DNA of 64,000 bases. Source: a virus. The position numbers were made by a program, and so were the translations under genes. Below the pieces are notes generated by a model. The model was not told the origin of the DNA. It saw only the letters and a program-made list of their open reading frames with translations, and did no database searches. The DNA lies in the IMG/VR virus record IMGVR_UViG_3300030387_000070. One strand, given 5' to 3'. Shown here in pieces: positions 9,140 to 63,994 of this stretch (position 1 is the stretch's first letter; each line of letters opens with the position of its first letter).

Positions 9140-9144
9140 ATGTG

Positions 9145-15194: not shown

Positions 15195-15614
15195 ATGGAC
15201 AACAATATTGACCCAAAGGTCGGAGAGGTTTGGTTGGTCGATTTGTCAAATGCGACAGGTCATCAGCAGCGCGGTATTCGACCGTTCGTTGTGACGAGCA
15301 ACAATAAGCGCAACTTCTTTAGCCCCACAATCAAAGGGAATCCATTGTCTTCCAGAATATACAAGCGCTCTCCGGTTCATGTTCTACTTTCAAAGGAAGA
15401 TTGTGATTTCTTAGAAGTTGACAGTATCGTTCTTTGTGAAGAGACTGACACGCTTAACAAAGGACAGTTCATCAAAAAACTTGGTGTCTTGTCGGAACGT
15501 CAGATGAATATGATTGCAATGGCAAGATGTAAGGATGAACCGTTTTTGCTCGCAGCATTCCTGAGCGGCGTACAACATACTATGGAATTTCAGAATTTTG
15601 CCGCATTTGCTTGA
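15195..15614 (+). CDS. MazF/PemK-family endoribonuclease toxin-like protein
   Basis: RBS GAGGAGAAAG upstream; the N-terminus VGEVWLVDLSNATGHQQRGIRPFVVTSNN and overall pattern match the PemK/MazF fold; no MazE-like antitoxin seen upstream. Confidence 0.65.
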   Translation: MDNNIDPKVGEVWLVDLSNATGHQQRGIRPFVVTSNNKRNFFSPTIKGNPLSSRIYKRSPVHVLLSKEDCDFLEVDSIVLCEETDTLNKGQFIKKLGVLSERQMNMIAMARCKDEPFLLAAFLSGVQHTMEFQNFAAFA

Positions 15615-15667: not shown

Positions 15668-16594
15668 ATGCTTACTGAAGAAAAAATCAACGCTTTTGCC
15701 GAAAGGTATTCTGATAAAAGCGGTAAGTTTGTTGTATCGACACTTAACAATGTTATGATCTATGAGGCCGAGTGTGGGTATGAGTTGTTTGATTTTACAA
15801 AAAATGATTTTGTAAAGATGTTTGCAAAATACAATTGGGTGAACTCAAGTCGTTCATTTAGAAATGTGAAATCAATAATCACTGGCTACATCAAAAGTGA
15901 AGATCGTACAAGTTTGTATGACTTGGCTGAATTTTCGGAAAATGACGTAAGTTCAGACGATATGTATGCAGACAAGTATTTTGCATCGGTTGATGAATTT
16001 GTTGACTTATTAAATAAATACGAAGAGCCATATCAGATTCGTATGAACGTGATTGCTGTATTATACTGGATCGGACTTACCGCTGGTGAAATTGTTAATC
16101 TAACAATCAATGATGTTGATTTTGAATCTCGTACTGTTCTCAATAGGACTGGTATTGATGCGAGGTTGATGGATATCATCAAGCAGTGTTATGAAATGAA
16201 ACAATATGATGCTCCCAACATGGGAGGATACAGAACGTTTTATGTCATAAACGGTGATTACATCCTTCGCAAAACAGAGGACAGGACTGGAGCAGACAGT
16301 GACCCAAAGATATCTACAAATACAATTCATACCTATTTTATGAGATTGAATGATATTCTCGAAAAAAGAGGTTGTTCTAAGATTTTGGACCAAAGACATT
16401 TAACAAGAAACAACGAGTATATCAAGGTTTATGACTATTGCAAAACTCATCCAGAATTTAATCTTGTAGAACTTAGCTTCGGAAATGGTAAAGATCCTCT
16501 TGCAGACATTATCGGAAGAAAGTGTAGCAAGGTAGCCTATATTAGCTTCCGGCAAGGATACAAGGGCTGGATTGAGTATTTCCATAAAAATTAA
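15668..16594 (+). CDS. hypothetical protein (308 aa)
   Basis: RBS AAGGAG upstream. Confidence 0.4.
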   Translation: MLTEEKINAFAERYSDKSGKFVVSTLNNVMIYEAECGYELFDFTKNDFVKMFAKYNWVNSSRSFRNVKSIITGYIKSEDRTSLYDLAEFSENDVSSDDMYADKYFASVDEFVDLLNKYEEPYQIRMNVIAVLYWIGLTAGEIVNLTINDVDFESRTVLNRTGIDARLMDIIKQCYEMKQYDAPNMGGYRTFYVINGDYILRKTEDRTGADSDPKISTNTIHTYFMRLNDILEKRGCSKILDQRHLTRNNEYIKVYDYCKTHPEFNLVELSFGNGKDPLADIIGRKCSKVAYISFRQGYKGWIEYFHKN

Positions 16595-16598
16595 AAAT

Positions 16599-16621
16599 AG
16601 GGGCTTCGGCCCCTTAATTTT
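16599..16621 (+). terminator. rho-independent terminator (AGGGGC-TTCG-GCCCCT plus T-run)
   Basis: Perfect 6-bp GC stem with a TTCG loop followed by TAATTTT. Confidence 0.6.
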
Positions 16622-16628: not shown

Positions 16629-16649
16629 TAGCTATATAATACAGGATAC
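16629..16649 (+). promoter_or_regulatory. 21-bp promoter-associated motif TAGCTATATAATACAGGATAC, direct copy
   Basis: Contains TATAAT at 16635-16640, about 20 nt before the RBS of the Pnkp-like gene. Confidence 0.5.
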
Positions 16650-16670: not shown

Positions 16671-18884
16671 ATGAGAACGCTTTTGCTGTTCCGTGGAGCA
16701 CCAGGTTGTGGGAAGTCCACCTATATTAAAGAGCATAATCTTGAGCAGTATGTATTGAATGCTGATACACTTCGACTTATGTGCCAGAGCGCACAGGAAA
16801 CACCTGCCGGGCGGATGGAGATCTCTCCGCAGAATGATGATGTTGTATGGGAGATGCTTTTCAAACTGCTTGAGGTGCGTATGAGTCATGGCGAGTTTAC
16901 CGTGATTGATGCAACGAATTCCAAGACGGTCGAAATGAATCGTTATAAGAATCTTGCAAAACAGTATCGTTATCGGATGTATGTTATTGACATGACGGAC
17001 CTTCCGATTGAGGAATGCAAACGAAGAAACGCTCAGAGAGAATGGCTGAATCGAGTTCCTGAAGCGGCCATTGATAAGATGTACGCTCGGTTTGCTACTC
17101 AAAAAGTTCCTTCTGGTGTGACAGTTCTTCCTTCTACTACGGATGTGATGTCCGATTTGAACTACTGTCCGAATGACTTCAACCAGTGGAAGAAGATCCA
17201 TATCATCGGTGATGTTCATGGCTGTTATACTTGTTTAAGTGAATACCTTGGTGAGATGAAGGACGACGAACTGTATATCTTCGTTGGTGATTATCTCGAT
17301 CGTGGCATCGAAAACGTTGAGGTATTCAAGTTCTTGTGTGATGTTGTAAATAACAACCGCAAGAATGTGATCCTTTTGGAGGGCAATCATGAGTGTTGGC
17401 TAAACAAGTGGGGGCATGATGAACCGGTTCAGAGTGAAGAGTTTGCAAACTACACTCGTCCGCAGCTCTTTAAAGCCGGTATTGACAAGAACACTGCTCG
17501 TAAGATCTATTCCAGAGTAGGCCAATGTGCCTACTTTGAGTATGATGGGAAGCGGTATTTCGTGAGCCACGGTGGTTTGAGTTATCTGCCTTATTTTCTT
17601 CCTTTCGTATCTGCTGATCAGATGATTAAAGGTGTAGGTCGCTATCCTGATATGCTAACCGTGGCTGAGTCTTGGGAAAAATCGATGCCGGATAGCTACA
17701 TTCAGATCTTCGGCCATCGAAATGTGCAGGATGTTCCTATTGATATGGGGCATCGGTGCTACAATCTCGAAGGAAAAATCGAGTTTGGTGGATATCTCCG
17801 TTGCGTTGAACTTGAACACGGTCAGTCAATCAAATGTGTAGAAACCAAGAACGATGTGTTCCGAAAAGAGGAGCCAAAGACTGAAACTGCCGTTGAAATG
17901 AAAACTGAGTTCGATAACGCAGAACTTGTTAGTAAGATGCGTCAAAGCAAATATGTGTTTGAGAAGCGATTCGGAGATATTTCTTCTTTCAACTTCTCTC
18001 GTGAAGCATTTTATAAGAAGCACTGGGATGAGGTTTCTACCAAAGCAAGGGGATTGTTCATTAACACAAAGACGAATAAGATTGTAGCTCGAAGCTATGA
18101 TAAGTTCTTTGCGGTTGATGAGCGGAATGAAACGAGAATTGGAAACCTACAGAACACTTTGAAGTTCCCAGTGACTGCATATCTAAAAGAGAACGGATTT
18201 CTTGGTATCATTTCGTATGATGCAGAACAGGATGGTCTGTTCATTGCAAGTAAATCCACTCCTGAAGGGCCTTTTGCAGATATGTTCCGAAAGATTATTA
18301 TGGATACTACTTCCGATGAAGATCGTAAGAATCTGAAGGAGGTTGCCAAGGAGCATGGCTCCATCATCTTTGAGGTTATTGATCCTGTGAATGATGCTCA
18401 TATCATAGAATACAAGAAACCGCACATTGTTTTGCTGGATGTTGTTGCAAACGATATGAATTTCAGTGTGATAGATTATGATGACTTGAAACGTGTCGCA
18501 GAAAAGTGTCATCTGCAGATTAAGGAGAAGGTTAAAACCTTTGAGAACTGGAGTGAATTCTATCCTTGGTATGAGGAAGTCATGAATGAGAACTATCTGT
18601 ACCATGACATCGAGCATGTTGAAGGCTTTGTTCTGAGAGATAGTAACAACTTTATGTTCAAGTTAAAGCTTCCTTATTATAAGCATTGGAAGTTCCTGCG
18701 TGGTGTTATGAAGAGCGTCCAGAAACGTGGCTATTACGAAAACACCGCCAAGCTGTTTACGGCTGAAGATAATTTGTTCTATGGTTGGATGCGTGAGCAA
18801 CGAGAGAAAGATCAAGAGGCGTTCAGCAAGAAGGGAATCATTCAGCTGCGAAATGAGTTCTATGCAAGTCAGCAGAAGAGTTGA
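16671..18884 (+). CDS. polynucleotide kinase-phosphatase-ligase (Pnkp-like RNA repair enzyme): P-loop kinase, calcineurin-like phosphoesterase and nucleotidyltransferase (ligase-like) domains
   Basis: Walker A GAPGCGKST at the N-terminus; metallophosphoesterase motifs GDVHG, GDYLDRG and GNHE; C-terminal nucleotidyltransferase motifs KENG (KxNG), EGFVLR and KLKLPYYK. Confidence 0.65.
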   Translation: MRTLLLFRGAPGCGKSTYIKEHNLEQYVLNADTLRLMCQSAQETPAGRMEISPQNDDVVWEMLFKLLEVRMSHGEFTVIDATNSKTVEMNRYKNLAKQYRYRMYVIDMTDLPIEECKRRNAQREWLNRVPEAAIDKMYARFATQKVPSGVTVLPSTTDVMSDLNYCPNDFNQWKKIHIIGDVHGCYTCLSEYLGEMKDDELYIFVGDYLDRGIENVEVFKFLCDVVNNNRKNVILLEGNHECWLNKWGHDEPVQSEEFANYTRPQLFKAGIDKNTARKIYSRVGQCAYFEYDGKRYFVSHGGLSYLPYFLPFVSADQMIKGVGRYPDMLTVAESWEKSMPDSYIQIFGHRNVQDVPIDMGHRCYNLEGKIEFGGYLRCVELEHGQSIKCVETKNDVFRKEEPKTETAVEMKTEFDNAELVSKMRQSKYVFEKRFGDISSFNFSREAFYKKHWDEVSTKARGLFINTKTNKIVARSYDKFFAVDERNETRIGNLQNTLKFPVTAYLKENGFLGIISYDAEQDGLFIASKSTPEGPFADMFRKIIMDTTSDEDRKNLKEVAKEHGSIIFEVIDPVNDAHIIEYKKPHIVLLDVVANDMNFSVIDYDDLKRVAEKCHLQIKEKVKTFENWSEFYPWYEEVMNENYLYHDIEHVEGFVLRDSNNFMFKLKLPYYKHWKFLRGVMKSVQKRGYYENTAKLFTAEDNLFYGWMREQREKDQEAFSKKGIIQLRNEFYASQQKS

Positions 18885-19851: not shown

Positions 19852-19935
19852 GCACCCGTGGTGAAATTGGCAACCACGATGGACTTAAAATCCATTCCCG
19901 GTAACGGGTTGCGAGTCCGAGTCTCGCCGGGTGCA
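19852..19935 (+). tRNA. tRNA-Leu(TAA), type II
   Basis: Acceptor GCACCCG/CGGGTGC, anticodon loop CTTAAAA, 15-nt variable arm, A73. Confidence 0.65.
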
Positions 19936-19940
19936 TATTT

Positions 19941-20016
19941 CTGGGCGTAGCGAAGTTGGCATCGCACCTGTTTTGGGAACAGGGGACCGCAAGTTCAAAT
20001 CTTGTCGCTCAGACCA
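19941..20016 (+). tRNA. tRNA-Pro(TGG), CCA encoded
   Basis: Anticodon loop TTTGGGA, T-loop TTCAAAT, acceptor with one G-U pair, ends ACCA. Confidence 0.65.
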
Positions 20017-20023
20017 CTACGAG

Positions 20024-20111
20024 GATTCGCCAAGTTGGTAAGGCAGCGGAATTTGACTCCGCCAGCGCTGAACAAGCGGTCACAGGTTCGAGTCCTGTAT
20101 CCTCGGCTTAT
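20024..20111 (+). tRNA. anomalous type-II tRNA with anticodon TTG (Ser-like G73 body)
   Basis: Acceptor CGAGGAT/ATCCTCG, U8, D-arm GCC-AAGTTGGTAA-GGC, anticodon arm GCGGA-ATTTGAC-TCCGC, 19-nt variable arm, T-loop TTCGAGT, discriminator G. Confidence 0.45.
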
Positions 20112-20113
20112 AT

Positions 20114-20198
20114 GCGGGTATGGTGTAACTGGCAGCCACGTCAGATTTAGGATCTGATGCCGAAAGGCGTGAGGGATCGTGCCCCTCTACCCGTACCA
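20114..20198 (+). tRNA. tRNA-Leu(TAG), type II, CCA encoded
   Basis: Anticodon arm TCAGA-TTTAGGA-TCTGA, 13-nt variable arm, A73, CCA present. Confidence 0.6.
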
Positions 20199-20298
20199 CG
20201 GTCATAGAATGGTTGCGTACCGTTTGTTGATCTCCTTTACTATTATTCCCGGCTCGCCAGTGATGGTGCAGTAGTGCTTTGTAAGCTGGGTTTTCATG

Positions 20299-20372
20299 CA
20301 GCGGTCGTACAACGGCTAGTACATCAGCCTTCCAAGCTGAGGATGAGGTTTCGACTACCTTTCGCTGCTCCA
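20299..20372 (+). tRNA. tRNA-Gly(TCC), CCA encoded
   Basis: Acceptor GCAGCGG/TCGCTGC, anticodon loop CTTCCAA, T-loop TTCGACT, ends TCCA. Confidence 0.6.
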
Positions 20373-20560
20373 ATCTTGTATGGGTAGGATCTTTAGCGGT
20401 CAGATCCAGCCGCGCCTGTGCAAGATACCACCCCGAAAGGGGCGAGATATAGGAAATGTGCATCGCTGTTATTCCTTCCTCGTCTATATGATATAGATGC
20501 AATAGTGTTTTATAAGGAAGGTCCCCAGTTGAATAGTTGCAGCTGTTTGACTGGTAATAT

Positions 20561-20634
20561 GGGATAGTAGCTCAGTTGGTCAGAGCTGGCGGCTCATAAC
20601 CGCTTGGTCGCGAGTTCAAATCTTGCCTGTCCCA
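20561..20634 (+). tRNA. tRNA-Met(CAT), elongator-like
   Basis: Acceptor GGGATAG, D-arm GCTC-AGTTGGTCA-GAGC, anticodon loop CTCATAA, T-loop TTCAAAT; the 1-72 pair is formed, so not an initiator. Confidence 0.6.
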
Positions 20635-20742
20635 CTAACCCGATAGGGTGAATACATAGAATTTGCTAGAAATTTTGTTTTATGGGCGAATAAATAATAT
20701 GACGTTGATACGTCTATTATTTTTCGCTAATTTTTAAAGTTT

Positions 20743-20763
20743 TAGCTATGTAACACAGGATAC
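20743..20763 (+). promoter_or_regulatory. 21-bp promoter-associated motif, direct variant TAGCTATGTAACACAGGATAC
   Basis: Motif copy 3 nt before the AAAGGAGG RBS of the methyltransferase N-terminal part. Confidence 0.45.
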
Positions 20764-20780: not shown

Positions 20781-21503
20781 GTGAAACATTATGGAAGTAT
20801 TTGCGAGATTGATGGTTCTAAGATTGAGCCTGTCTCGTGTATCACTGGTGGTTCACCTTGTTAGCCAAGACCTTTCTATTGCCGGCAAGCGGGCAGGTTT
20901 GGCTGGAGAACGGTCTGGTCTATTTATGGAAATGATTCGTGTGATAAAGGAGATGAGGGAGGCCACCAATGGAGAGTATCCAAAATTTGCAATCTGGGAA
21001 AACGTCCCAGGAGCCTTCTCTTCCAACAAAGGAGAAGACTTTAGATGTGTCTTGGAAGAATTTGCACGCATTGTCGAACCAAGTGTTTCAGTTCCTCGAC
21101 CTTCGGGAAGAGAATGTAAGTGGGCAAAAGCTGGAGCAATCGCCGGAAACGGATGGTCCTTGGCGTGGAGATTATTCGACGCTAGTGGTTGGGGTGTTCC
21201 CCAGCGTAGAAAACGTCTCGCGCTTGTCATGGACCTTAGAGGACAATGTGCCGGAAAAGTATTATTTGAGCAAACGGGCGTGTCAGGGGATCTTGATAAG
21301 AGCGTCAAGACGTGGAAAACCATTGCCCGACCTTCTGAAGGATGCACTGCAGGAGATGATTCATTGGTGGGAGATGAAAGATCCTACACTTTGAAGATTC
21401 GTTCTGGCTGCGCAGGGGGGGTAAAGGAGCACTCGTGCAGAATGAATTGAGTGCGACTCTCTCCACTTTGCAAGATCAGACTTTGTTCTGTGTAAAGCAT
21501 TAA
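20781..21503 (+). pseudogene. N-terminal part of a DNA (cytosine-5) methyltransferase (motifs IV, VI, VIII) split across three reading frames
   Basis: GTG 20781 after AAAGGAGG. Frame 0 reads VKHYGSICEIDGSKIEPVSCITGGSPC then TAG at 20853-20855. Frame 1 continues (S)QDLSIAGKR...ENVPG...QRRKRLALV...SYTLKIRSGCAGG. At the G7 run 21415-21421, frame 0 reads GKGALVQNELSATLSTLQDQTLFCVKH and stops at TAA 21501. Confidence 0.55.
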
Positions 21504-21515: not shown

Positions 21516-22262
21516 TTGGAAAAAGAAACCAGTTTACATAATTTAAAACAAAATATTTCCACAGCGGTATTTGAAAGCCATAGTCAGGATGCTCGATACA
21601 CTCAGCAAGGTAATACAAGCCCAGCTTGTACAGCTCAATGGGGTACTGGTGGTAATAATATGCCGCTTGTCGCTGAAAAGAAAGCCTTTGCTATGCAGCG
21701 TATTGGCGAATATAAGGAAAGCGAACAGGCCAGCACAATGAAATCTCGTGATTATAAAGATGCAACTGATCTTGTAGTTGAAGAGAAAGAGGTGAAATGT
21801 GCTGGGTTTCCACTTGGATTTAGAGCAGAAAATACGAAATGCTACGATGAAGTGGCTACTACGCTTTGCAATGGTACGCGGCCTGGATTTACTACTGGAT
21901 GTGTTCTCAATTGGATTGTTCGCCGCTTGACTCCTGTTGAGTGTGAACGGTTACAGGGTTTTCCTGATGGATGGACCGATATTGGCGAGTGGGTTGACGA
22001 AAATGGTAAAAAGCACAAGCCAGCCGATTCTCCTCGGTACAAGGCGCTCGGCAATTCGATTGCTTTGCCTCAGTGGTATTGGATTTGCCAGAAGATGAAA
22101 CCGTATATTGGTGAAAATCCTACGCTTGGCAGTCTTTTCGATGGAATCGGTGGCTTTCCGCTTGTCTTTGAAAGTACGTATGGTGATGGTACTGCTATCT
22201 GGGGATCTGAAATTGAATCGTTTTGTGTTGCGGTGACAAAGAAGCATTTTCCAGAAGACTAA
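21516..22262 (+). CDS. C-terminal part of a C5 methyltransferase (TRD, motif IX, motif X) fused to MTase motifs I and II
   Basis: RBS AAGGAGG 7 nt before TTG 21516. Contains RRLTPVECERLQGFPDGWT (motif IX), YKALGNSIALP (motif X), then SLFDGIGGFPL (motif I) and WGSEIE (motif II) before the stop. Confidence 0.55.
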   Translation: MEKETSLHNLKQNISTAVFESHSQDARYTQQGNTSPACTAQWGTGGNNMPLVAEKKAFAMQRIGEYKESEQASTMKSRDYKDATDLVVEEKEVKCAGFPLGFRAENTKCYDEVATTLCNGTRPGFTTGCVLNWIVRRLTPVECERLQGFPDGWTDIGEWVDENGKKHKPADSPRYKALGNSIALPQWYWICQKMKPYIGENPTLGSLFDGIGGFPLVFESTYGDGTAIWGSEIESFCVAVTKKHFPED

Positions 22263-24270: not shown

Positions 24271-24291
24271 TAGCTAAGTAATACAGGATAC
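24271..24291 (+). promoter_or_regulatory. 21-bp promoter-associated motif, direct variant TAGCTAAGTAATACAGGATAC
   Basis: Copy located 37 nt before ATG 24328. Confidence 0.45.
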
Positions 24292-33323: not shown

Positions 33324-36300
33324 ATGCCAAGTAGTCTACACACACACTCGAATTACAGTCTACTAGATGGGTACTCTTCTCCTGAAGAAAATCTAAAAAG
33401 AGCATCAGAACTTGGTTTGAAAGCCATTGCCATTACGGAACATGGTGAGGTAACAAGCTGGCCGTACTATTCTGAACTAAAAGGCAAGTATCCGAATGTC
33501 AAACTTCTTTATGGTATCGAGGCATACGAGTGCGAAGATAGGGAAGTCAAGGACAAGAATAGTAAATATTGGCATTTAATCATTATTGCCAAGAACGAAG
33601 CTGGTCGTCAGGCAGTCAATCGCTTATCTACACTCGGTCATCTTCATGGCTTTTACAGCCGTCCTCGTATCACAAAAGAGGATATCGCTAAGGAAGATAC
33701 GAATAATTTGATTATCCTGTCTGCTTGTTTGGCGAGTAGGCTGTCAAGAACGGATGATTATGACACTTGTGTCAAGCTGGTTCAAGAGTATAAGAGCTTA
33801 TTCCCTCACTATTATCTTGAGGTTCAGGCTCATGCAAACAGTGAACAAGCAAAATATAATCAGAAAATCATGCGGTTGGCAAACGATACTCATACAAAAG
33901 TAGTCGTCACAAACGATGTTCATGCTGCTACCAAAGAGGATCTTTATTATCAAGATTATTTCCTTCGTATCGCTCATGATACGGAAACCGCCACAGAAAT
34001 CTATGAAGGGTGCTACTTCATGTCTCGTGATGAGCAGCATAGAGCCCTTGATAATCAGATTGGATACGATGCGGCAGAATGGTGTATCAATAATACTGAC
34101 GAGGTTGCTGATCTGTGTGATGATGTGGATATGCCTTGGCATGAACCGGAACTTCCCAAAATTGAGATTCCGCCACAGTATTCTAATTCGGCAGCTTATC
34201 TGAAAGACCTTGTAAAAGAGGGATGTAAGAAACGTAGCATTGATAAGTTTGATGTAGAAAAGCAGAAAATCTATCGAAAACGTGTTGATGATGAGCTGTT
34301 TGTCATTGAGAAGAAAGACTTCTGTGACTACTTTTTGATTCTGGTTGATTACATCAACTGGTGTAAGAAAAATGATGTCATTGTTGGCCCTGGTCGTGGT
34401 TCTGCTGCTGGTTCTCTTGTATGTTACCTGATTGGCATTACGCAGCTTGATTCCATCAAGTATGAACTTGACTTCGGACGATTCCTTACCATTGAGCGAA
34501 AAGACCTTCCTGACGTTGATGTTGATGTCAGTGACCGTGCCAAGGTTGTCGAGTATCTGACACAGAAGTATGGAGAAGATCGAGTAGTTCAGGTTATGAA
34601 CATCGTGTACACTACTCCGGTTACTTCAATTCAAGATGTTGGTAAGGTGCTCGGTTTCCCGTATGCCGAGATAAGAAAAATCAGTGAGAAGTTCGTTCAA
34701 AAGACATGGAAAGATTGCCTTGAAGCCAACACAGAAGTAGCTGAGAATCCAAAATATAAGGAACTACTTGATATTGCAAGTCATATCAATGGTCGCCCAC
34801 GAGGATATGGTATCCATGCTGGCGGTGTTATTGTTTGCCGACATCCTTATTACGAGTATATCGGTATCCGGCATGGTACTGACGGAGAGCACGTTATTTC
34901 CGTTGATAAGGTGATGGACGAGAAGATTGGACTTGTTAAGTTTGATATTCTTGGTGTTGCGTCGCTGGTTGCCATTGATGAAGCGAAGCGTGAGGATAAT
35001 ATTCCAGACTGGGAAATTGATATCAACAATCCTGAATTTGAAAACGACAAGGCAACTTACGATTTGATTTGCTCCGGTAAGACAGACAATCTATTCCAGA
35101 TTGAATCGTCCGGCATGAAAGATCTGGTTGCGCAGCTTCAACCTAGGTCGATTGAAGAACTATCCGCTTTGATTGCTCTTTATCGCCCTGATGCAATGCC
35201 GTCCATTCCTACATACGTTGACTGCAAGTATCATCCCGAACACATTCATTATTTCCATCCTGATATGGAACCAATTTTCCGCAGTACCTATGGCGTGAAC
35301 ATCTATCAGGAACAGAGTATGAAGCTCACAAAGGTCTTTGGTGGCCGAAGCGATGCTGGTGCTGATAGAATGCGTAAGTGCTTGGCAAAGAAAAAACCTG
35401 AGAAGGTCAAGGAAGAGGTAGAACTTCTTCACGATGAAATTCTTGCAAATGGATACGATAAAGCAACCGCTGAGTATATTTGTAACGAGTTGTCAACGAA
35501 GGGCGGCTATGGTTTCAATAAGTGTATTTCTGGCAACACGAAGTTGTGGAGAATGAGAAGTGGTCGGTTTGAGCCTACTGTTGCAGAAATGTACAAGATT
35601 CGCAATGATAGGAAGTTTGCTATCTTGACAAATCACACACATCTTAGGGACAAATATAGACGATACGGTTACGGTAGTGCGTTGTCAATGTGTGATGATG
35701 GACGCATTCGGATGAATAAAATTATTGATATCAAGTATTCTGGATATCGAATGCTGTATCGTGTAACAACTGAGACCGGTGCGACCATTGAATGTACAGA
35801 TAATCATAAATTCCCGACAACTGATGGCATTAAGTTGCTTTCTGATATGAGAATTGGTGATGAGTTATATGAGATTGGTGCTTATGAGGTTTGCAGAAAC
35901 AAGTATAATCTGACGGATGGAAATTTCGAAAGCAATTTGCCGAAGCCGGGACAAATGGGGTTCCAGACGAAGGAATTTAGTGCGAATCGTCTGTTTGAAG
36001 AGACGAAAGAAAAGAATAGACTGAAAAGAAGCCCATGTGAAATTTGCGGTAGAGAATATTCCGAAGATGCTCGTTTTGAAGTACACCACAAAGATTTTGA
36101 CCATACGCATAATGTACCTGATAACTATACTTGGTGCTGTGCATCGTGTCACAAGAAACTTCATTACGCTCACGGGCGAGTAAAACAGTATGAAAAGGGC
36201 ATCCCGTCAAAGACCGCTAAGATTATTTCTATTGAGGAAATTGGTTTTGATGATGTCTATGATGTGACAATGGATGCTCCGAATCACAATTTTGTAGTGT

Positions 36301-37340
36301 CAACTGGTATTGTAACTTGCAACTCTCATTCACAAGCCTATGCTGACATCTGTCTCCAGACTGCATATTTGAAAGCCCACCATCCGCTTGCATTCTTTAA
36401 GGCTATGCTGAACCTGAATAAAGCAAAGGTCGGCAAGGTCAACAAGATTATGGTGGATGCACGCAGCTTTGATATTCAGATTCTTCCGCCGAGTATCAAT
36501 CGTTCCGGCATGGACTTTACTGTGTCAAATGGTAAAATCCTGTTTGGCTTATCTGCTATCGGTGGTATTGGCGATACGCTTGCTGAAACTATCATTGCAG
36601 AACGAGATAGAAATGGAAAATTTAAGGGACTTGATGATTTCACGAGTCGTGTTCGTGCAACGAAGGCGCAGATTATTGCATTGGTTAAATCCGGTGCGAT
36701 TCCTACAAAGAACAAACGAATATTCTTGGAAAAGTACATTACCAGCGGTCTGGAACAATCTGAGTTTAAGCCAGTCAGTACACTTCCTACCAAGGCAGTT
36801 TTGCTGAGTAAGTGGGGTATTGATACAGAGCATTATAAGGTTGGTAAAAAGGTTGACAAAGAAACCGTCTTACGGATCTATAATGAAAAGCGCCGTGTCG
36901 TACATGAAACCGAGAAGCTGAAAAAGAAAGAAGCGTATATGGACGAGCAGACCACAAAATATCTACAAGATGAAGAACTTTGGGAGTTCCAGACTTTGCA
37001 GACCTTTATCAGTGACCCGAATCCTTTCGAGAAGGCATTTACTTATATCAAGGATTTCTCTGAAATCGAAGAAGGTGATTCTTGTGTACTGGTTGGTATT
37101 ATCGCAAAGATTCAGAAGAAGAAAACGAAGACTGGTATGCAGTTTGCATTTGTAAATCTGTATTCTGGCGATGGTATTATTGAGCTGACCGTATGGCCGA
37201 GAGTCTTGTCGGATTATCAGGATTTGATTGTAAAGGGAAGTCAGGTGGCTGTGCTTGGAAAGAAGGAAGATGAATCGCACGTTATTGCAAGCAACTTCAA
37301 ACCTTACAAGCAGTGGTTGCATGATAGAGAGATAGCGTAA
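33324..37340 (+). CDS. dnaE: DNA polymerase III alpha (DnaE-family) with in-frame intein
   Basis: PHP domain HTHSNYSLLDG at the N-terminus; the GYGFNK-SHSQAYA catalytic motif is interrupted by an insert. Confidence 0.75.
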   Translation: MPSSLHTHSNYSLLDGYSSPEENLKRASELGLKAIAITEHGEVTSWPYYSELKGKYPNVKLLYGIEAYECEDREVKDKNSKYWHLIIIAKNEAGRQAVNRLSTLGHLHGFYSRPRITKEDIAKEDTNNLIILSACLASRLSRTDDYDTCVKLVQEYKSLFPHYYLEVQAHANSEQAKYNQKIMRLANDTHTKVVVTNDVHAATKEDLYYQDYFLRIAHDTETATEIYEGCYFMSRDEQHRALDNQIGYDAAEWCINNTDEVADLCDDVDMPWHEPELPKIEIPPQYSNSAAYLKDLVKEGCKKRSIDKFDVEKQKIYRKRVDDELFVIEKKDFCDYFLILVDYINWCKKNDVIVGPGRGSAAGSLVCYLIGITQLDSIKYELDFGRFLTIERKDLPDVDVDVSDRAKVVEYLTQKYGEDRVVQVMNIVYTTPVTSIQDVGKVLGFPYAEIRKISEKFVQKTWKDCLEANTEVAENPKYKELLDIASHINGRPRGYGIHAGGVIVCRHPYYEYIGIRHGTDGEHVISVDKVMDEKIGLVKFDILGVASLVAIDEAKREDNIPDWEIDINNPEFENDKATYDLICSGKTDNLFQIESSGMKDLVAQLQPRSIEELSALIALYRPDAMPSIPTYVDCKYHPEHIHYFHPDMEPIFRSTYGVNIYQEQSMKLTKVFGGRSDAGADRMRKCLAKKKPEKVKEEVELLHDEILANGYDKATAEYICNELSTKGGYGFNKCISGNTKLWRMRSGRFEPTVAEMYKIRNDRKFAILTNHTHLRDKYRRYGYGSALSMCDDGRIRMNKIIDIKYSGYRMLYRVTTETGATIECTDNHKFPTTDGIKLLSDMRIGDELYEIGAYEVCRNKYNLTDGNFESNLPKPGQMGFQTKEFSANRLFEETKEKNRLKRSPCEICGREYSEDARFEVHHKDFDHTHNVPDNYTWCCASCHKKLHYAHGRVKQYEKGIPSKTAKIISIEEIGFDDVYDVTMDAPNHNFVVSTGIVTCNSHSQAYADICLQTAYLKAHHPLAFFKAMLNLNKAKVGKVNKIMVDARSFDIQILPPSINRSGMDFTVSNGKILFGLSAIGGIGDTLAETIIAERDRNGKFKGLDDFTSRVRATKAQIIALVKSGAIPTKNKRIFLEKYITSGLEQSEFKPVSTLPTKAVLLSKWGIDTEHYKVGKKVDKETVLRIYNEKRRVVHETEKLKKKEAYMDEQTTKYLQDEELWEFQTLQTFISDPNPFEKAFTYIKDFSEIEEGDSCVLVGIIAKIQKKKTKTGMQFAFVNLYSGDGIIELTVWPRVLSDYQDLIVKGSQVAVLGKKEDESHVIASNFKPYKQWLHDREIA
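35523..36323 (+). mobile_element. intein (267 aa) with HNH homing-endonuclease domain inside dnaE
   Basis: The insert starts with Cys after GYGFNK and ends ...IVTCN before Ser (SHSQAYA); internal HNH motif CEICG...HHKDFDHTHN...CCASCH. Confidence 0.7.
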
Positions 37341-37352: not shown

Positions 37353-39683
37353 GTGGCAGATAAGAAATTTAATGAAAATATGATCCGTTGCTACATTAGG
37401 ATAAAACGAGTCTTTTATCCGAAAGATGGGAAGGAGGTGGAGCCCGGCGGCTTCGCCACTTTCTCTGCCGAAGTGATAAAAGTCAAGCAGGGGAACCCCA
37501 TTATGAGCCGATACAGTGACCTCCGACTGAAAGGCAACGTCCCTAGCCTTGATATGAATAAGACTTATTCGTTCTGTGGTGAGTATGTTCACCATGAAAA
37601 GTTTGGGGACCAGTATAAAATCGTCTATATGAACGAGTTCCAAGAGATTACTGACCCAGAAGAACAGAAAAGTTTTCTCCATTTTATCTTAACAGAACAT
37701 CAGTTTGAGATGCTTTACGAAGCATTTGATAATCCGTATGAGATCATCAAGAACGGTGATATCAAGTCTCTTTGCACTGTTAGTGGTATCACAGAAGGTC
37801 GAGCACAGAAAATTATCGATGCCTTTGAAAATAACATTGATAACAGCGAAGCATACACGAAGCTGATTGAGTATGGTTTGACTCCAAGTGCAATCGGAAA
37901 ACTTGTTCATCAATATCACGGTGCAGACACTCTTGTGAAGAAAATTGAAGAGAATCCTTATGTTCTGATTGACGATGTATATGGGATTGGATGGAAGAAA
38001 GCTGACGCTCTTGCTTTGAATATGGGATTGAAGCCAAACTCTCAGTTCCGAATTGAAGCTTACGTCATGCATTTTCTTGCTGATCGTGCCGAAGAAGGCA
38101 ATTCTATCATCCCGGCAAACCAGACAATCAATAGTTGCATTAAGGAACTTGGCTTGGATGAGGGTGACCAAGAGGTTATCAAGAGAGCACTTTTCCATCT
38201 GCACGATGTCCGCGAAACGCTTTGGTGGAGTGATGATCGTCAGGAATTTGCTTTAACAAGAGTGTGGAATCTGGAAAATAAGATTTCAAAGGAAATTAAG
38301 CGTCTGGCGGATGCACCTGTCGAGCCGATTGGTCGAAACATGGATGCTGCAATCGACGAAGCAGAACATGCTCTTGGCATCGAGTACACTGAGGAGCAGA
38401 GAGATGCTATTAAAAAGGTATGCTCTAGCAACATCTGTATCTTAACAGGCTACGGCGGAACTGGTAAAAGTACCGTTGTCGCTGGTGTTCTAAAGGTTCT
38501 TCGTGGTAAGTCTTTTGCTCAGACTGCACTTTCTGGTCGTGCCGCAGCTCGTATGCAGGAGATTACTGGTCAGGATGGAAAGACCATTCACCGTCTTCTT
38601 GGCTACGACATCGAGAACGGTGGGTTTGTTCACGATAAGGACAATCCTCTGGAAGAAGACATTATCATTCTGGATGAGACCTCTATGGTTGGAGCTCAGT
38701 TGTTCTATGACTTGATTCAGGCTATCGAGACCGGAAAGCGATTCATCATGATTGGCGATGACGGCCAGCTTGAGAGTATTGGTATGTGCAACATCTTCAA
38801 GGATATGCTTGCCTCCAAGGTTGTTCCGGTTGCTCGCTTGACGAAGATTCACCGTCAGGCTGCTAAGTCAGCGATTATCACAGAGAGCATCAAGGTTCGT
38901 AATGCCACGCAGTTGGTTCCTTACGGTTGGGCTGGTAATGAGATTCGTGGTGAGCTGCGTGATTTGGAGCTAGATATCTACAAGGATGCAGGCGAGTCGT
39001 TTAACCACATCATCAATCAATACCGTACCTTATATAATAAGGTAGGGAATGACAGCGCAAAGATTCAGATTGTACTTCCGCAGAAGCTCCGTGGTAGCAT
39101 TTGCACCTACGAGGTGAATAACGCCATTCAGGAAATTGTAAATCCGAGTCGTGGTCAGGCAGAAGCAAAGGTCACAATCTACGGTGATGGCAAGGATAGA
39201 GTGTACACTCTGCGTGAGGGCGATCAGGTCATTATCAACAAGAATAACTATGAGCTTCATACATACAATCTCAAGACAAAGAAAAAGGAAGAGAAGTGTC
39301 CGGTGTTCAACGGAAACCGTGGCATTATCCGAAAGATTGAGAGTAGTTTTATTCTGGTTGACTTTGACCAGTGGGGAACTATCTTCATTCCTCATTATTT
39401 TGGTGGGAACAACATCTGGGCAACACTTGAACTCGCTTATGCTTTGAGTTGTCATAAACTGCAAGGTAGCGAAGCTCCGTATGTAATTGTCGGCATGGAC
39501 AACTCTGCATACCTGATGTTGACGAGAGAATGGCTCTATACGGCCATCACTCGTGCCAAGAAGTATTGTGTGATTTGCGCCGAAACTCATGCTCTTGATC
39601 GGGCTGTAAAGACTTCAAGAGTGCCATATAAGCGGACGTTCTTGAAGGAATTTTTACGGAAAGAATTTTCAGAAAAGCGTTGA
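37353..39683 (+). CDS. RecD2-like SF1 DNA helicase with N-terminal HhH region
   Basis: GTG start after GAGGGT; Walker A GYGGTGKST; HhH-like GITEGRAQKIIDAF and GIGWKKADAL. Confidence 0.65.
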   Translation: MADKKFNENMIRCYIRIKRVFYPKDGKEVEPGGFATFSAEVIKVKQGNPIMSRYSDLRLKGNVPSLDMNKTYSFCGEYVHHEKFGDQYKIVYMNEFQEITDPEEQKSFLHFILTEHQFEMLYEAFDNPYEIIKNGDIKSLCTVSGITEGRAQKIIDAFENNIDNSEAYTKLIEYGLTPSAIGKLVHQYHGADTLVKKIEENPYVLIDDVYGIGWKKADALALNMGLKPNSQFRIEAYVMHFLADRAEEGNSIIPANQTINSCIKELGLDEGDQEVIKRALFHLHDVRETLWWSDDRQEFALTRVWNLENKISKEIKRLADAPVEPIGRNMDAAIDEAEHALGIEYTEEQRDAIKKVCSSNICILTGYGGTGKSTVVAGVLKVLRGKSFAQTALSGRAAARMQEITGQDGKTIHRLLGYDIENGGFVHDKDNPLEEDIIILDETSMVGAQLFYDLIQAIETGKRFIMIGDDGQLESIGMCNIFKDMLASKVVPVARLTKIHRQAAKSAIITESIKVRNATQLVPYGWAGNEIRGELRDLELDIYKDAGESFNHIINQYRTLYNKVGNDSAKIQIVLPQKLRGSICTYEVNNAIQEIVNPSRGQAEAKVTIYGDGKDRVYTLREGDQVIINKNNYELHTYNLKTKKKEEKCPVFNGNRGIIRKIESSFILVDFDQWGTIFIPHYFGGNNIWATLELAYALSCHKLQGSEAPYVIVGMDNSAYLMLTREWLYTAITRAKKYCVICAETHALDRAVKTSRVPYKRTFLKEFLRKEFSEKR

Positions 39684-39708
39684 CAATCATGTTCGTATCC
39701 TGTATAAT
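39680..39708 (+). promoter_or_regulatory. consensus sigma70 promoter (TTGACA, 17 nt spacer, TATAAT) overlapping an inverted 21-bp motif copy (39695-39717)
   Basis: -35 at 39680-39685 and -10 at 39703-39708. Confidence 0.6.
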
Positions 39709-39754
39709 ATAGCTATGAAAAGTCTCCATCTCGGAGGCTTAAAATTCTCTCTTT

Positions 39755-39774
39755 AACTATATAATACAGGATAC
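39755..39774 (+). promoter_or_regulatory. 21-bp motif, direct copy AACTATATAATACAGGATAC
   Basis: Followed by the hairpin and the MACS mini-ORF. Confidence 0.45.
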
Positions 39775-39776
39775 GG

Positions 39777-39816
39777 GAAAGGAATGGCTTGCTCGTAATG
39801 GCAAGCCTTTCTTTAT
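39777..39816 (+). terminator. hairpin GAAAGG-AAT-GGCTTGC-TCGTAAT-GCAAGCC-TTTC plus T-rich tail (terminator or attenuator)
   Basis: Complementarity seen directly; the 4-codon ORF ATG GCT TGC TCG TAA (39784-39798) lies inside the stem. Confidence 0.4.
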
Positions 39817-39823
39817 TCATTAC

Positions 39824-39843
39824 AACTATATAACACAGGATAC
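39824..39843 (+). promoter_or_regulatory. 21-bp motif, direct copy AACTATATAACACAGGATAC
   Basis: Ends 6 nt before the AAGGAGG RBS of the ligase gene. Confidence 0.45.
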
Positions 39844-39856
39844 GCAAGGAGGCTTT

Positions 39857-41188
39857 ATGACAGATAAAGAGCTCATAGGTAAGCTCGATGCGATGGTAAA
39901 GGCATTGCAGAGCACGAAGAAAAAGACAGATAAGACCCGCATTTTGCTGGATGAACGAAAGGATTTTGGGGCTGAAGCTGACGAGTTGATGGCCTTCTTC
40001 CGATTCTTGCTTGATCCGGCAATCGTAACTGGACTGTCGGATGCAAAAATCAATAAGCAGGTGAGTGCCAAGCCTGAAATTGATATCCAGTATCTCAGTT
40101 GTGGATACCTTTATATTATGGGTGCTGGTCACAACACTGGTTCTGACGCATCCATCGCAACAATTCAAAATTATTTACATAAAAATCCTGAAAATGAAGA
40201 GTTTCTGAAGCGGCTGTTTACCAAAAATCTTCCGATTGGCGTTGAGGCAGCTGCCATCAATAAGGTATATGGCGAGGAAATTATTCCTGTCTGGGAAGTC
40301 CAGCAGGGATATCCAATCGATAAGGTGAAGTTGAAACCCGGCACATGGTTTAGTCTGAGTCAGAAGATGAACGGCAATAGGGGCACAATGTATCGTGGAG
40401 ATTTAATTTCTCGTCAAGCGCAGAAGTTTGAAGGACTCGATCATATTAAGAATGATCTGCTCGCTCTATATGATGGAGGTGTGGAGAGGCGAGATTCTTT
40501 GGTGTTTGATGGCGAACTCATTTATAAGAACCCTGAAGGAATGTCGGACGGAGAGGCGTTTCGTTTCGGCACTGGCCTACTTAATTCTGACAGCAAGAAC
40601 AAGACTGGAATTAAATTTGTGATTTTTGATGTAATTCCTGTTGTAGAGTTCGACTGTGAAAAGTGTGCTGTCCAGTATCAAACCCGCCGGGAATGGCTAA
40701 ATTGTCTTCGTGCGGAGATTGCTCGTAAGAATCTTGAAAACATCGAAATTGTTCCAATGGTATACGAAGGTACTGACCAGAGTGTGATTCCGAAGTGGCT
40801 TGATTATGCTGTGGCACATGATTGGGAGGGTTTGATGTTGAACACCAATGTTCCTTATCAGCGTAAGCGTCATACCGGCTGTCTCAAAATTAAGCGTTTT
40901 TACACTGTTGACCTGCGAATCACCGCGATTGAAGAGGGTCAGAATCGTCTGGCTGGTACGATGGGCGCTCTGGTTGTGGACTACAAGGGCAACGAGCTTC
41001 GTGTCGGCTCTGGTTTTGATGATGCTACGAGAGCTGCTGTGTGGGCAAATCCTGATAATTACATCGGCAAGATCGTTGAATGTAAGTACAAAGAGGTCAC
41101 GATGGATAAAAAGACCGGTCTTGAGTCTCTGCAATTCCCGACCTTTGTAAGATTTAGAGATGACAAGAATGAGGTGTCTTATGGCTGA
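39857..41188 (+). CDS. ATP-dependent DNA ligase
   Basis: Nucleotidyltransferase motifs KMNGNRG (motif I), FDGELI (III), EGLMLN (IV) and LKIKR (V). Confidence 0.65.
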   Translation: MTDKELIGKLDAMVKALQSTKKKTDKTRILLDERKDFGAEADELMAFFRFLLDPAIVTGLSDAKINKQVSAKPEIDIQYLSCGYLYIMGAGHNTGSDASIATIQNYLHKNPENEEFLKRLFTKNLPIGVEAAAINKVYGEEIIPVWEVQQGYPIDKVKLKPGTWFSLSQKMNGNRGTMYRGDLISRQAQKFEGLDHIKNDLLALYDGGVERRDSLVFDGELIYKNPEGMSDGEAFRFGTGLLNSDSKNKTGIKFVIFDVIPVVEFDCEKCAVQYQTRREWLNCLRAEIARKNLENIEIVPMVYEGTDQSVIPKWLDYAVAHDWEGLMLNTNVPYQRKRHTGCLKIKRFYTVDLRITAIEEGQNRLAGTMGALVVDYKGNELRVGSGFDDATRAAVWANPDNYIGKIVECKYKEVTMDKKTGLESLQFPTFVRFRDDKNEVSYG

Positions 41189-61435: not shown

Positions 61436-63994
61436 TTACTGGATGCCGGTAACAGGATAATCCTGTGCTTCCACGGCCTTCTTCAGCACCTCATCGTCCA
61501 CTTCGGCGTTCAGGGTAACGATGGCGGTACCGGCTTCGTGGCTGACAACAGCCTCGTCCACCTGCGGCAGAGCCTCCAAAGCCTTCTTGACGCGGGCTTC
61601 ACAGTGATGGCACATCATACCTTCTACGGTCAGGGTCTTTTTCATAGCAATCTTCTCCTTGTAAGTTGTATCTTCCTCCGCTGCGGGCTGCACAAGGGCA
61701 GCGGGCAGGGCAGGGACGTGTTTGGGCGGGTGGTCATGTTTTGCGCTGTGCAGGTCAAACAGGTTCAGCCGCAAGGCGTTGCTCACCACGCAGAAGCTGG
61801 AAAGGCTCATGGCAGCTGCGCCGAACATGGGGTTCAGCGTCAGTCCCAATGGAATGAACACACCGGCTGCCAGCGGGATGCCGATGATGTTATAGATGAA
61901 CGCCCAGAACAGGTTTTCGTGGATGTTGCGCAGGGCAGCACGGCTCAGCCGGATGGCGGCGGGCACGTCCGACAGCTTGGAGTTCATCAGTACCACGTCT
62001 GCAGCGTCAATGGCTACGTCTGTGCCTGCGCCAATGGCAATGCCGGTGTCAGCGCGGGTCAGGGCAGGAGCATCGTTGATGCCGTCGCCCACCATAGCTA
62101 CCTTGCCGTACTTTTGCAGCTGCCGGATGACGGCCTCCTTGCCCTCGGGCAGCACTCCCGCGATCACCTCGTCCACCCCGGCCTGTCGGCCAATGGCCTC
62201 GGCAGTGCGCTGGTTGTCGCCGGTCAGCATCACGACCCGGATACCCATATTTCGCAGCTCCCGGATGGCCTGCGGGCTGTCCTCCTTGATGGTATCTGCC
62301 ACTGCGATAACGCCCAGCAAACGACCTGCGCCACCAAAGAACAGGGGCGTCTTACCCTGTGCAGCCAGCGCGGCGGCTTCGGCTTGCAGCGCAGCGGGGA
62401 TGGCGACCTTTGCGCCGATAAAGGCCGCATTGCCGCCAAAGATCTCCTTGCCTTCCAGCGTGGCGGTAAGGCCGTTGCCCGGCAGGGCGGTAAAATCGGT
62501 AACAGAGGGCAGCTCCAGCTGCTTTTCCTCCGCATAGGCCAGCACTGCCCGCGCCAACGGGTGCTCGCTGCGGCCCTCCAGCGCGGCGGCCAGCGTGAGC
62601 AGCTCGGTCTCAGTCACGCCCGCAGCGGGCAGAAGGTCGGTGACGGTAGGTTCGCCGCAGGTGATTGTGCCGGTCTTGTCCAGCGCTACGATGCGGGTGC
62701 GTCCGGCTTCTTCCAGCGCCGCAGCGGTCTTGAACAGGATGCCGTTCTTCGCACCAAGGCCGTTGCCCACCATAATAGCCACCGGCGTTGCCAGACCCAG
62801 CGCACAGGGGCAGCTGATGACCAGCACCGAGATGCCCCGCGCCAGCGCGTAGCCCACATCCCGCCCCAGCAGCAGCCAGACAAGGGTGGTGACCACCGCA
62901 ATGCTGATGACCGCAGGCACGAAAAAGCCGGATACGGTATCTGCGATCTTTGCAATGGGGGCTTTGGTGGCGGCGGCATCGCTGACCATGCGGATGATCT
63001 GCGCCAGCGTGGTGTCCTCGCCTACGCGGGTAGCGCGGCACTGCAAATAGCCGGACTGGTTGGTGGTGGCGGCGCTTACCTTATCGCCCACGGCCTTGTC
63101 CACCGGGATGCTTTCGCCGGTCAGGGCGCTCTCGTTCACGGCGCTGCTGCCCTCCAGCACAATGCCGTCCACCGGGATGTTCTCGCCCGGACGCACCACA
63201 AAGATGTCCTCTTTCTGCACCTGCTCAATGGGCACGGTCACCTCGGCACCGTCCCGCAGCAGGGTGGCGGTTTTGGGGGCTAGCTTCATCAGGCTTTTGA
63301 GCGCATCGGTGGTCTTGCCCTTGGAGCGTGCCTCCAGCATTTTGCCCACCGTGATGAGGGTCAAAATCATGGCGGCAGACTCAAAATAGAACTCCATCAT
63401 GTAGTGCATGACTAGTTCCTCGTTGCCGTGTAGCTGCGCATCGGTCATGGCAAACAGGGCGTAGGTGCTCCATACAAAGCTTGCCATCGAGCCCATAGCC
63501 ACCAGCGTATCCATGTTGGGGGAGCGGTGCACCAGCCCCTTGAAGCCGTTGATGAAAAATTTCTGGTTGATCACCATCACGATGCCCGCCAGCAGCAGCT
63601 GTACCAGCCCCATGGCAATGTGGTTGCCGTCAAACCAGCGGGGCAGCGGCCAGCCCCACATCATGTGCCCCATGGAAAAGTACATCAGCACCAGCAAAAA
63701 GCCCAGCGAGGCGATAAGCCGCCGCTTTAGCTTGGGTGTTTCGTGGTCGGCCAGTGCGTCCAGCTCTGCGCTGGTACTGGCAGCGGCAGCAGCGGTCTTT
63801 TTAGGGCTTGCACCGTAACCGGCCTGCTCTACGGCACGGATAATGGCGGAATCTTCTGCTGTGCCCTCCACCCCCATGGAGTTTGTCAGCAGGCTTACCG
63901 AACAGCCGGTAACGCCCGGCACGCTCTTTACGGCCTTTTCTACCCGGGCAGAGCAGGCCGCGCAGCTCATGCCGGTAACGTTGAATTGTTCCAT
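61436..63994 (-). CDS. copA: copper-translocating P-type ATPase CopA (heavy-metal-binding domains at both termini)
   Basis: [13 protein letters not shown] and [12 protein letters not shown] metal-binding sites; CPC transduction motif [11 protein letters not shown]; DKTGT phosphorylation site; GDGINDAP; about 65% GC. Confidence 0.85.

Follow-up and report, generated by a model that had tools for sequence, protein, structure and literature searches.

The DNA analysed here, virus record IMGVR_UViG_3300030387_000070, is 64,000 nt long (the window), and the features described below were predicted computationally. It is best explained as the early plus-strand half of an approximately 130-kb SPbeta-style prophage of an anaerobic gut Firmicute. 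The subject of this study is the region in front of the gene for an ATP-dependent DNA ligase (443 aa; DNA_ligase_OB_2, E 1.6e-16), where three copies of one motif, hereafter the box, are combined with a promoter and two hairpins. The ligase gene with its ribosome binding site (RBS, AAGGAGG) occupies positions 39846–41188 of the plus strand, starts from ATG at 39857 and is the first gene of a plus-strand block of about 21 kb, which reaches the end of the prophage and carries no further boxes. Upstream of it lies promoter P1 (39680–39708, plus strand), composed of TTGACA (39680–39685), a 17-nt spacer and TATAAT (39703–39708). With a score of 12/12 it is the sole perfect promoter match between 36 and 44 kb and one of three intergenic near-perfect plus-strand matches in the whole window. 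The stop codon of the preceding RecD2 gene (TGA, 39681–39683) falls within its −35 hexamer, and transcription would start at about position 39715.

Box 1 (39695–39715) reads TAGCTATATTATACAGGATAC on the minus strand, scores 35.4 bits and has one mismatch in its 18-nt core (39695–39712). It spans approximately positions −20 to +1 of P1, including the −10 hexamer. Box 2 (39754–39774, plus strand, TAACTATATAATACAGGATAC, 34.8 bits) has a perfect core at 39757–39774 and corresponds to about +39 to +59 of P1. With box 1 it forms an inverted pair at a distance of 62 bp, separated by a 41-bp segment. Box 3 (39823–39843, plus strand, CAACTATATAACACAGGATAC, 30.2 bits; core 39826–39843, one mismatch) follows 69 bp after box 2, at about +108 to +128. 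All elements that an earlier note had described here (a consensus promoter, one inverted and two direct motif copies, a hairpin with a T-tail and a 4-codon open reading frame) were found in place, including the third motif copy that ends at the ligase RBS, with a gap of 2 nt before AAGGAGG.

Using the ligase as a query, 187 related stretches were registered in IMG/VR and 80 of them were fetched and compared; in genome contigs the same query found no relative. The fetched relatives are phage contigs, most of them 80–140 kb long, with ligases 78–98% identical. In all 80 the layout is kept: counted from the ligase ATG, the inverted box stands at −162 and the direct ones at −100 and −31, and TTGACA and TATAAT of P1 persist in all distinct relatives listed that extend so far. 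The intergenic region is conserved as strongly as the flanking coding sequence and shows no third-position periodicity. Variation is limited to five places: that half of the P1 spacer which lies farther upstream, the loops of the two hairpins, the linker leading to box 3 and the central AT hexamer of direct boxes. This −10-like hexamer is TATAAC in box 3 of 42 of 57 distinct relatives; in box 2 it appears as CGTGAC (4 relatives), TACAAT or CATAAC, and direct boxes elsewhere in the window have TGTAAC (20746) and AGTAAT (24274). TAGCTA and ACAGGATAC, which flank the hexamer, are nearly fixed. No −35 element was found at a spacing of 16–18 nt from the hexamer of the direct boxes, and the −11A and −7T of the hexamer are not conserved. 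Since the hexamer varies exactly where sigma-A needs constancy, while its flanks are nearly fixed, the box is apparently read by a protein over the whole 21 nt rather than used as a −10 element. Thus, the proposal of the earlier note that early and late promoters are stacked here around a terminator is weakly supported: the first promoter is indeed of consensus sigma-70/sigma-A type and a terminator-like hairpin is present in the leader, but the direct copies have no −35 and a variable hexamer.

Hairpin 1 (39722–39743, plus strand), which the earlier note did not contain, begins about 8 nt from the inferred 5′ end of the P1 transcript. It has an 8-bp stem AAGUCUCC/GGAGGCUU with a 5-nt loop followed by UAAAAUUCUCUCUUU, and its stability is −11.1 kcal/mol (z = −3.6). 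In 53 distinct sequences 99.8% of cells are paired; a compensatory change from C-G to U-A was registered in 5 of them, U-G intermediates were present, and in 4 U-G was replaced by U-A. Probably this hairpin is a 5′ stabiliser, as may be supposed by analogy with mRNA biology of Firmicutes, or else a weak pause site or terminator. Its 3′ arm GGAGGCTT (39733–39740) is identical to the stretch 39848–39855 of the ligase RBS, and the minimum free energy fold of 147 nt uses long-range pairing. Pairing of the 5′ arm with the RBS was nevertheless rejected as the main structure, because the compensatory change occurs in the local hairpin and the RBS is unchanged.

Hairpin 2 (39779–39817, plus strand; stem-loop 39779–39814) has a GGCUUG/CAAGCC core, a lower stem of an A-tract and a U-tract and a UUUCUUUAUU tail. 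Its stability is −19.6 kcal/mol (z = −4.6), none of 200 shuffled sequences was as stable, it is followed by TTTCTTTATT, and it was flagged by the terminator scan. The core is invariant in relatives, so covariation is uninformative here; the U tract is preserved in both variant forms tested, the stability of which is −16.6 and −17.5 kcal/mol. The GC-rich stem, the U tract and the conservation in relatives allow hairpin 2 to be considered a predicted intrinsic terminator, and folding of the leader, which the earlier note had suggested as a check, gave it as a stable structure in every fold. The 4-codon frame ATG GCT TGC TCG TAA (39784–39798, plus strand) lies within the 5′ arm and loop of this hairpin. 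It is intact in 49 of the 57 distinct relatives; ATG is lost in 7 (ACG or AAG) and the stop codon in 1, and the hairpin is kept in all. The start-codon changes lie at an unpaired bulge of the stem. The purine stretch before ATG varies among relatives (GGGAAAGAA in the majority) and is only 2–3 nt away from it. We therefore judge this frame to be a by-product of hairpin 2 rather than a conserved coding element. For the other short frame, starting at 39716, ATG is replaced by ATA in 46 of the 57 relatives and is absent in 51 altogether. A search of Rfam with the ligase upstream region gave no family, only sub-threshold chance matches.

The box was taken by the earlier note for a local promoter motif, which is not borne out by its distribution. 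In its conserved form it comprises 21 nt, TAGCTATATAAYACAGGATAC (TAG plus 18 nt), carries about 33 bits and is asymmetric, not palindromic. Scanning of the window with the 18-nt CTATATAATACAGGATAC, allowing up to 3 mismatches, revealed seven copies at five intergenic loci (18-nt starts and strands: 15138−, 16632+, 20746+, 24274+, 39695−, 39757+ and 39826+), where 0.01 would be expected; none of 100 shuffled sequences reached seven. With a position weight matrix built from the family, these seven sites scored 30–37 bits and everything else in the window at most 3 bits, so that intermediate scores are missing. A repeat search gave the box as the top and only notable repeat family in 61 kb of the prophage. 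Candidate copies with 5 mismatches were rejected as false positives in coding sequences. Exact matches in IMG/VR are confined to this one phage family, and examination of 123 of them added no further class of boxes; in 596 Gb of genome contigs the 18-mer has 15 matches scattered over unrelated taxa, which is approximately the number expected by chance.

The four boxes outside the ligase leader lie singly at the other four loci. One inverted box (15138–15158, minus strand) lies in a plus-strand promoter TTGACT-17-TATAAT (15123–15158) upstream of an operon with a mazF-like gene and a gene for a repressor homolog, which is considered below. Direct boxes were found at 16629–16649, 15 nt past the terminator of the repressor gene (16599–16614) and upstream of a Pnkp-like gene; at 20743–20763, after a tRNA array and a terminator-like hairpin (20701–20714) and upstream of a C5 methyltransferase gene; and at 24271–24291, upstream of the replication module that extends from an AAA_24 ATPase gene through RecD2 (all on the plus strand). 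Both inverted boxes of the window thus sit within rightward consensus promoters, with GTATCCTG in the spacer, then TATAAT and then ATAGCTATG, and the promoters at 39680 and 15123 have 61 nt in common at 77% identity (repeat family D3). All five direct boxes are devoid of a −35 element and are situated 2–35 nt before the RBS of a plus-strand gene. Three of them are preceded by a terminator-like hairpin (16599–16614, 20701–20714 and 39779–39814) and a fourth, box 2, by hairpin 1. Mosaic gene swaps among relatives start directly at the 3′ end of the box.

Relatives contributed four more boxes at two loci, X and Y, situated 3–10 kb upstream of the window start, which gives 11 predicted boxes in all. 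On L244 these two loci occupy positions 2256–2340 and 9100–9200, about 10 kb and 3 kb upstream of the point where the window starts. At locus X an inverted box overlies the spacer and −10 of a promoter TTGACA-17-TATTAT. A small U-tract hairpin, a direct box at a distance of 63 bp, an RBS and a gene follow in this order, which repeats the unit of P1, hairpin 1 and box 2 from the ligase leader. At locus Y two boxes in inverted orientation, 62 bp apart, surround a leftward promoter TTGAAT-17-TATAAT between divergent genes; one of them abuts the −35 and the other is at +4. The genes adjoining both loci have no Pfam match. The spacing of 62–63 bp, which is about six helical turns, was thus registered for inverted pairs in three cases (the ligase region, X and Y), and its constancy may point to binding that is cooperative along one helix face. 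The ligase leader itself looks like a fusion of two recurrent units, one consisting of a promoter with an inverted box, a hairpin and a direct box, and the other of a terminator, a direct box and an RBS, as at 16632 and 20746. Relative to sigma-A promoters the boxes are found in the spacer and −10 (39695, 15138 and X), at +4 and abutting the −35 (Y) or after terminators (16632 and 20746); such variability is characteristic of operators rather than of promoter elements.

The candidate for the box-binding protein is encoded at 15668–16594 of the plus strand (308 aa, predicted tyrosine-recombinase fold). Its gene is bracketed by boxes: 15138− is in the promoter of its own operon and 16632+ is just past its terminator. 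The former, placed in TTGACT-17-TATAAT upstream of the mazF-like and repressor genes, is proposed to be a site of autoregulation. The protein taken alone matched Pfam MrpR_N_CB with E 7e-4 and 20.6 bits, which is below the 27-bit cut-off, as well as a PHROG integrase family (E 3.5e-11) and Tn1549 Int (E 0.07). Most of its close homologs (74–96% identical) have a precomputed match to PF22823 (MrpR_C_cat). Searching 1.8 billion cluster representatives with the family profile (HMMER) yielded 68 relatives, many of 320–345 aa; a homolog with 36% identity (P0079) sits on a 1.3-kb contig. A 43-sequence alignment (deep profile A3) was then used for hhalign and Pfam. Compared by hhalign with MrpR (YopR) of SPbeta, this deep profile gave a probability of 98.65% and E 5e-16 over 270 columns with 15% identity, and among its members 33 of 43 match MrpR_N_CB (best E 1.5e-17) and 2 of 43 match MrpR_C_cat. 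With a shallow family alignment hhalign gave 0.6% only; the link to MrpR was undetectable by single-sequence phmmer and by a shallow profile against the Protein Data Bank (PDB), and phage genomes gave no match in tblastn. Since AlphaFold yielded a poor model (pLDDT 53), the Foldseek search of PDB structures made with it is only suggestive: its top six hits were YopR/MrpR (8bj6, 8a0a, 8bpz) and phi3T SroF (9rd5, 9rgl), with E of about 0.1. From these data we conclude that the predicted product is a remote but clear member of the MrpR/YopR/SroF family. The position of the box I arginine is taken by an invariant Thr138, so that the GLR/GLK of Tn1549 Int corresponds to GLT here. For the remaining catalytic residues the model, with its pLDDT of 53, is too poor for a reliable assignment. 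Because the box I arginine is replaced by an invariant Thr, recombinase activity of this protein is improbable.

The master repressor of SPbeta, MrpR, has a tyrosine-recombinase fold without recombinase activity and binds a repeated element, SPBRE, in ten promoter regions of this phage, among them the one in front of the mrpR operon (PMC10516654). In phi3T the repressor SroF is a monomer clamping an asymmetric 26-bp box, of which 24 bp are read, and its sites are scattered over remote regions of the phage genome (bioRxiv 10.1101/2025.11.27.690993). A monomeric protein of this type would need just such a box as is present here, asymmetric, 21 nt long and usable in both orientations. We therefore consider it probable, with a reasonable margin for doubt, that the motifs upstream of the ligase gene are operator boxes for the prophage's own MrpR/SroF-type master repressor, arranged around a host-type promoter and a terminator. 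Most likely this is a new example of the type of silencing for which Bacillus phage SPbeta is known, found in a lineage of gut prophages from which it had not been reported before. In a lysogen, one repressor monomer would clamp each of the three boxes. Occupancy of box 1 would cover the −10 and the start site, preventing RNA polymerase from opening P1, and boxes 2 and 3 would act as roadblocks which, with the terminator between them, would stop both the transcripts escaping from P1 and those entering from the replication operon upstream, which ends at the helicase gene. Upon inactivation of the repressor P1 would fire, producing a transcript that opens with the conserved stem-loop about 8 nt from its 5′ end, and a part of these transcripts would pass hairpin 2 to reach the ligase gene and the following genes of the block.

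Several observations weigh against this interpretation. The connection between the protein and the boxes is drawn from homology, proximity and elimination, and we infer, in addition, both the repression and the efficiency of the terminator. The homology to MrpR is remote and visible only with the deep profile, and the structural model is poor. All four single boxes of the window, and also every box downstream of a start site, are oriented with transcription, and most of them come after a terminator-like hairpin and before an RBS, which is a promoter signature too. Should the terminators be efficient, a promoter would be required for the genes that follow them, and the box is the only conserved candidate for it. 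Finally, a perfect promoter with a terminator less than 100 nt further on is not explained by repression alone.

According to the main rival interpretation, direct boxes are phage-specific promoters, recognised by an RNA polymerase or a sigma factor that the phage encodes, or else by the host polymerase in a modified form, so that a host-type early promoter is stacked with two middle or late ones, separated by a terminator; the boxes might then also be operators combined with weak promoters. Each direct box points as its downstream gene reads, 2–35 nt before the RBS, three of five follow terminator-like hairpins, both boxes of locus Y face outward toward genes, and the swaps starting at the 3′ end of the box resemble those at promoter-bounded modules. 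A conserved length of 21–23 nt is also typical of promoters for single-subunit polymerases, and SPbeta encodes a second polymerase, YonO. However, the three inverted boxes (39695, 15138 and that at X) would direct antisense transcription into the 3′ ends of the preceding genes, and a transcript starting from box 2 would reach hairpin 2 after only about 45 nt. The scanned proteins of the window, which is one half of the phage, included no recognisable polymerase or sigma factor, the 123 exact matches in IMG/VR disclosed no additional box class, and the analogous element of SPbeta is experimentally a repressor site. On balance we regard this possibility as rather unlikely. A compromise, to which we would assign a low probability, is that the box serves both as the repressor operator and, in direct orientation, as a −35-independent promoter for phage-directed transcription. 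Each junction of terminator, box and RBS would then be a switchable start, and the ligase leader a hand-over from host to phage transcription that releases a conserved RNA of about 100 nt. Such an RNA, starting from P1 and composed of the 5′ hairpin, single-stranded box 2 and the terminator, might also have a regulatory role of its own; or else boxes 1 and 2 might form a 22-bp duplex in the read-through transcript from the helicase gene, to be cut by RNase III or to stop transcription. With its promoter, its intrinsic terminator and, at the 5′ end, a stem-loop showing covariation, the layout resembles that of a small RNA, the span 39690–39780 folds at −33.6 kcal/mol (z = −7.2), and the inverted pair recurs with the spacing of 62–63 bp at X and Y. 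Yet no Rfam family matches, the promoter between the boxes of locus Y never brings the pair into one transcript, four boxes stand singly, and conservation per base over 21 nt of a box free of pairing partners argues for read-out of DNA by a protein. An RNA-level function of the unit thus seems very unlikely.

The earlier note had compared the layout with a leader-peptide or attenuator switch, in which translation of the 4-codon frame or an alternative fold would set termination at hairpin 2. The frame lies in the 5′ arm of a terminator placed between a strong promoter and the ligase gene, and most relatives (49 of 57) keep it intact. Its conservation is, however, accounted for by the stem. Since 7 relatives have no start codon and 1 has no stop codon, although all of them keep the hairpin, and since folds of the region contain hairpin 2 in every case and no stable competing antiterminator of comparable energy, a switch of this kind is not supported; the variable purine stretch, so close to ATG, also speaks against translation. 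We consider the chance of it minimal. Equally slight is the chance that the boxes are sites of an active tyrosine recombinase and that inverted pairs flank invertible segments, allowing a promoter to flip or the mazF–repressor cassette to be inverted. The repressor candidate has a recombinase fold, and inverted pairs exist at 39695/39757, at X and Y in relatives and, around the gene itself, at 15138/16632. But the box I arginine is an invariant Thr, characterised members of the family have lost recombinase activity (PMC10516654), segments of 41 bp are too short for synapsis, all relatives (80 + 80) show a single orientation, and the box does not have the structure of a core site, that is, a dyad plus a spacer.

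The interpretation of the boxes as operators of an MrpR/SroF-type repressor can be further evaluated by comparison with SPbeta itself. In the SPbeta record we located eight copies of SPBRE in seven upstream regions, with a consensus of about ACAAATACAAAAAATATGTATATAA, all oriented with their genes. They are situated 0–17 nt upstream of the RBS, have a −10-like AT core, and yonX has two of them 64 bp apart; according to our reading, several also fit a −35/−10 promoter. Common to both systems are a recombinase-fold repressor, in which the box I arginine is replaced here by Thr, and a long asymmetric box with an AT core, found at about ten distant early intergenic sites, including the own operon, upstream of the RBS and sometimes paired about 64 bp apart. 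The phages are also similar in size (~130 kb) and in having a one-strand early region with genes for DnaE, RecJ, a DnaB-type helicase, ligase and ribonucleotide reductase. The differences are no less evident. The protein described here is only remotely related to MrpR (15% identity by hhalign), the box sequence is unrelated (TAGCTATATAAYACAGGATAC versus ACAAATACAAAAAATATGTATATAA), and the host is an anaerobic gut Firmicute, not Bacillus. In contrast to the located SPBRE copies, the box has two separate uses here: inverted boxes lie in consensus promoters, and the direct ones, without −35, lie downstream or after terminators. The fixed inverted pairs at 62–63 bp and the leader with three boxes and a terminator have no counterpart among these copies. 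Unlike in SPbeta, the repressor gene is co-transcribed here with a gene for a MazF-like toxin. No Pfam match suggested a Sar or arbitrium gene among the scanned window proteins, and no search was aimed at them.

Two other phages offer partial parallels. In mycobacteriophage L5 (cluster A) the monomeric helix-turn-helix repressor gp71 recognizes asymmetric stoperators of 13–14 bp, of which there are some 20–30 per genome. One of these sites overlaps the early lytic promoter, and the others, located in short intergenic gaps in one orientation, block elongation. The boxes resemble stoperators in being asymmetric, with one over the promoter and others in intergenic gaps. They differ from them in length (21 nt), in number (about 11 per genome) and in the recombinase fold of the repressor, and blocking by them is proposed. 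With the PR′–tR′/Q module of lambda the ligase leader shares a near-perfect promoter, an intrinsic terminator within about 100 nt and a long operon behind it. However, neither a Q-like nor an N-like gene was recognised, there is no sign of an element for Q binding or of a pause dependent on sigma, and the repeated motif is present at many sites without such a promoter.

To our knowledge, SPbeta-like (arbitrium) phages of Bacillus are the only ones for which an integrase-fold master repressor with scattered long boxes is described to date. The same logic in a common ~130-kb prophage family of the human gut, with a very divergent repressor and an unrelated box, would extend this system beyond Bacillus. 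The triplet upstream of the ligase gene would in this case be a site of a regulon rather than a unique switch, and it is likely that these boxes control lysogeny and induction in a group of gut phages that is abundant but unstudied. The 11 predicted boxes in four arrangements (within a promoter, at +4, in inverted pairs at 62–63 bp and after terminators) offer a clean test bed for this assumption.

The surroundings of the repressor gene contain several other features. Directly upstream of it and under a common box-controlled promoter lies the gene of a MazF/PemK-like toxin (15195–15614, Pfam E 2e-19), and no obvious antitoxin frame was found between the two. The lysis–lysogeny circuit of SPbeta and phi3T runs via the host MazEF system, and a phage-borne MazF beside the repressor may represent related wiring. 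Just upstream of the operon, before a frame of 108 aa, there is a near-consensus promoter without a box (14707–14734, TTGACG-16-TATAAT with TGTG upstream of the −10), which may stay active in the lysogen. On the other side, the slot after the box at 16632 holds different genes in relatives, as a mosaic. In the window it is occupied by the gene of the Pnkp-like protein (16671–18884, 737 aa), which combines an AAA_33 kinase, a Metallophos phosphatase and an RNA_lig_T4_1 ligase and is located near the mazF-like gene and an array of six tRNAs (19852–20634, Rfam). The array stands between an HNH endonuclease gene and the junction of terminator and box, and is preceded by a promoter-like TCGACA-16-TATAAT at 19756. 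Such a neighbourhood of Pnkp-like, tRNA and MazF-like genes suggests an RNA-repair or counter-defence module. Behind the box at 20743–20763 two adjacent frames (20791–21450 and 21516–22262) match the N- and C-terminal parts of one C5 cytosine methyltransferase model, so that this gene is either split or frameshifted.

Nearly all genes of the window up to about 61.4 kb read rightward, and those of the early region also include the C5 methyltransferase, DnaB-like helicase, primase, RecJ, an intein-bearing DnaE, RecD2 and NrdD. The last gene (61436–63994, minus strand) encodes a copA-type ATPase. In metagenome contigs with an identical copA (loci L178–L181) a rubrerythrin gene stands where phage DNA lies here, and it follows that the window should include one end of a prophage residing in an anaerobe. 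The segment 61400–63994 is thus the predicted prophage–host junction, with copA as host DNA, and the arrangement with rubrerythrin is taken to mark the empty attachment site. A conventional tyrosine integrase gene (9136–9963; Phage_integrase E 1e-15, PHROG integrase E 9e-42) is located in the middle of the early region, far from this prophage end. The intein apparent in the DnaE-type polymerase (33324–37340, 1338 aa), as judged by the translation only, extends from GFNK/CISGNTKL to IVTCN/SHS and contains an HNH-like endonuclease with CxxC...HHKD...CCASCH inside.

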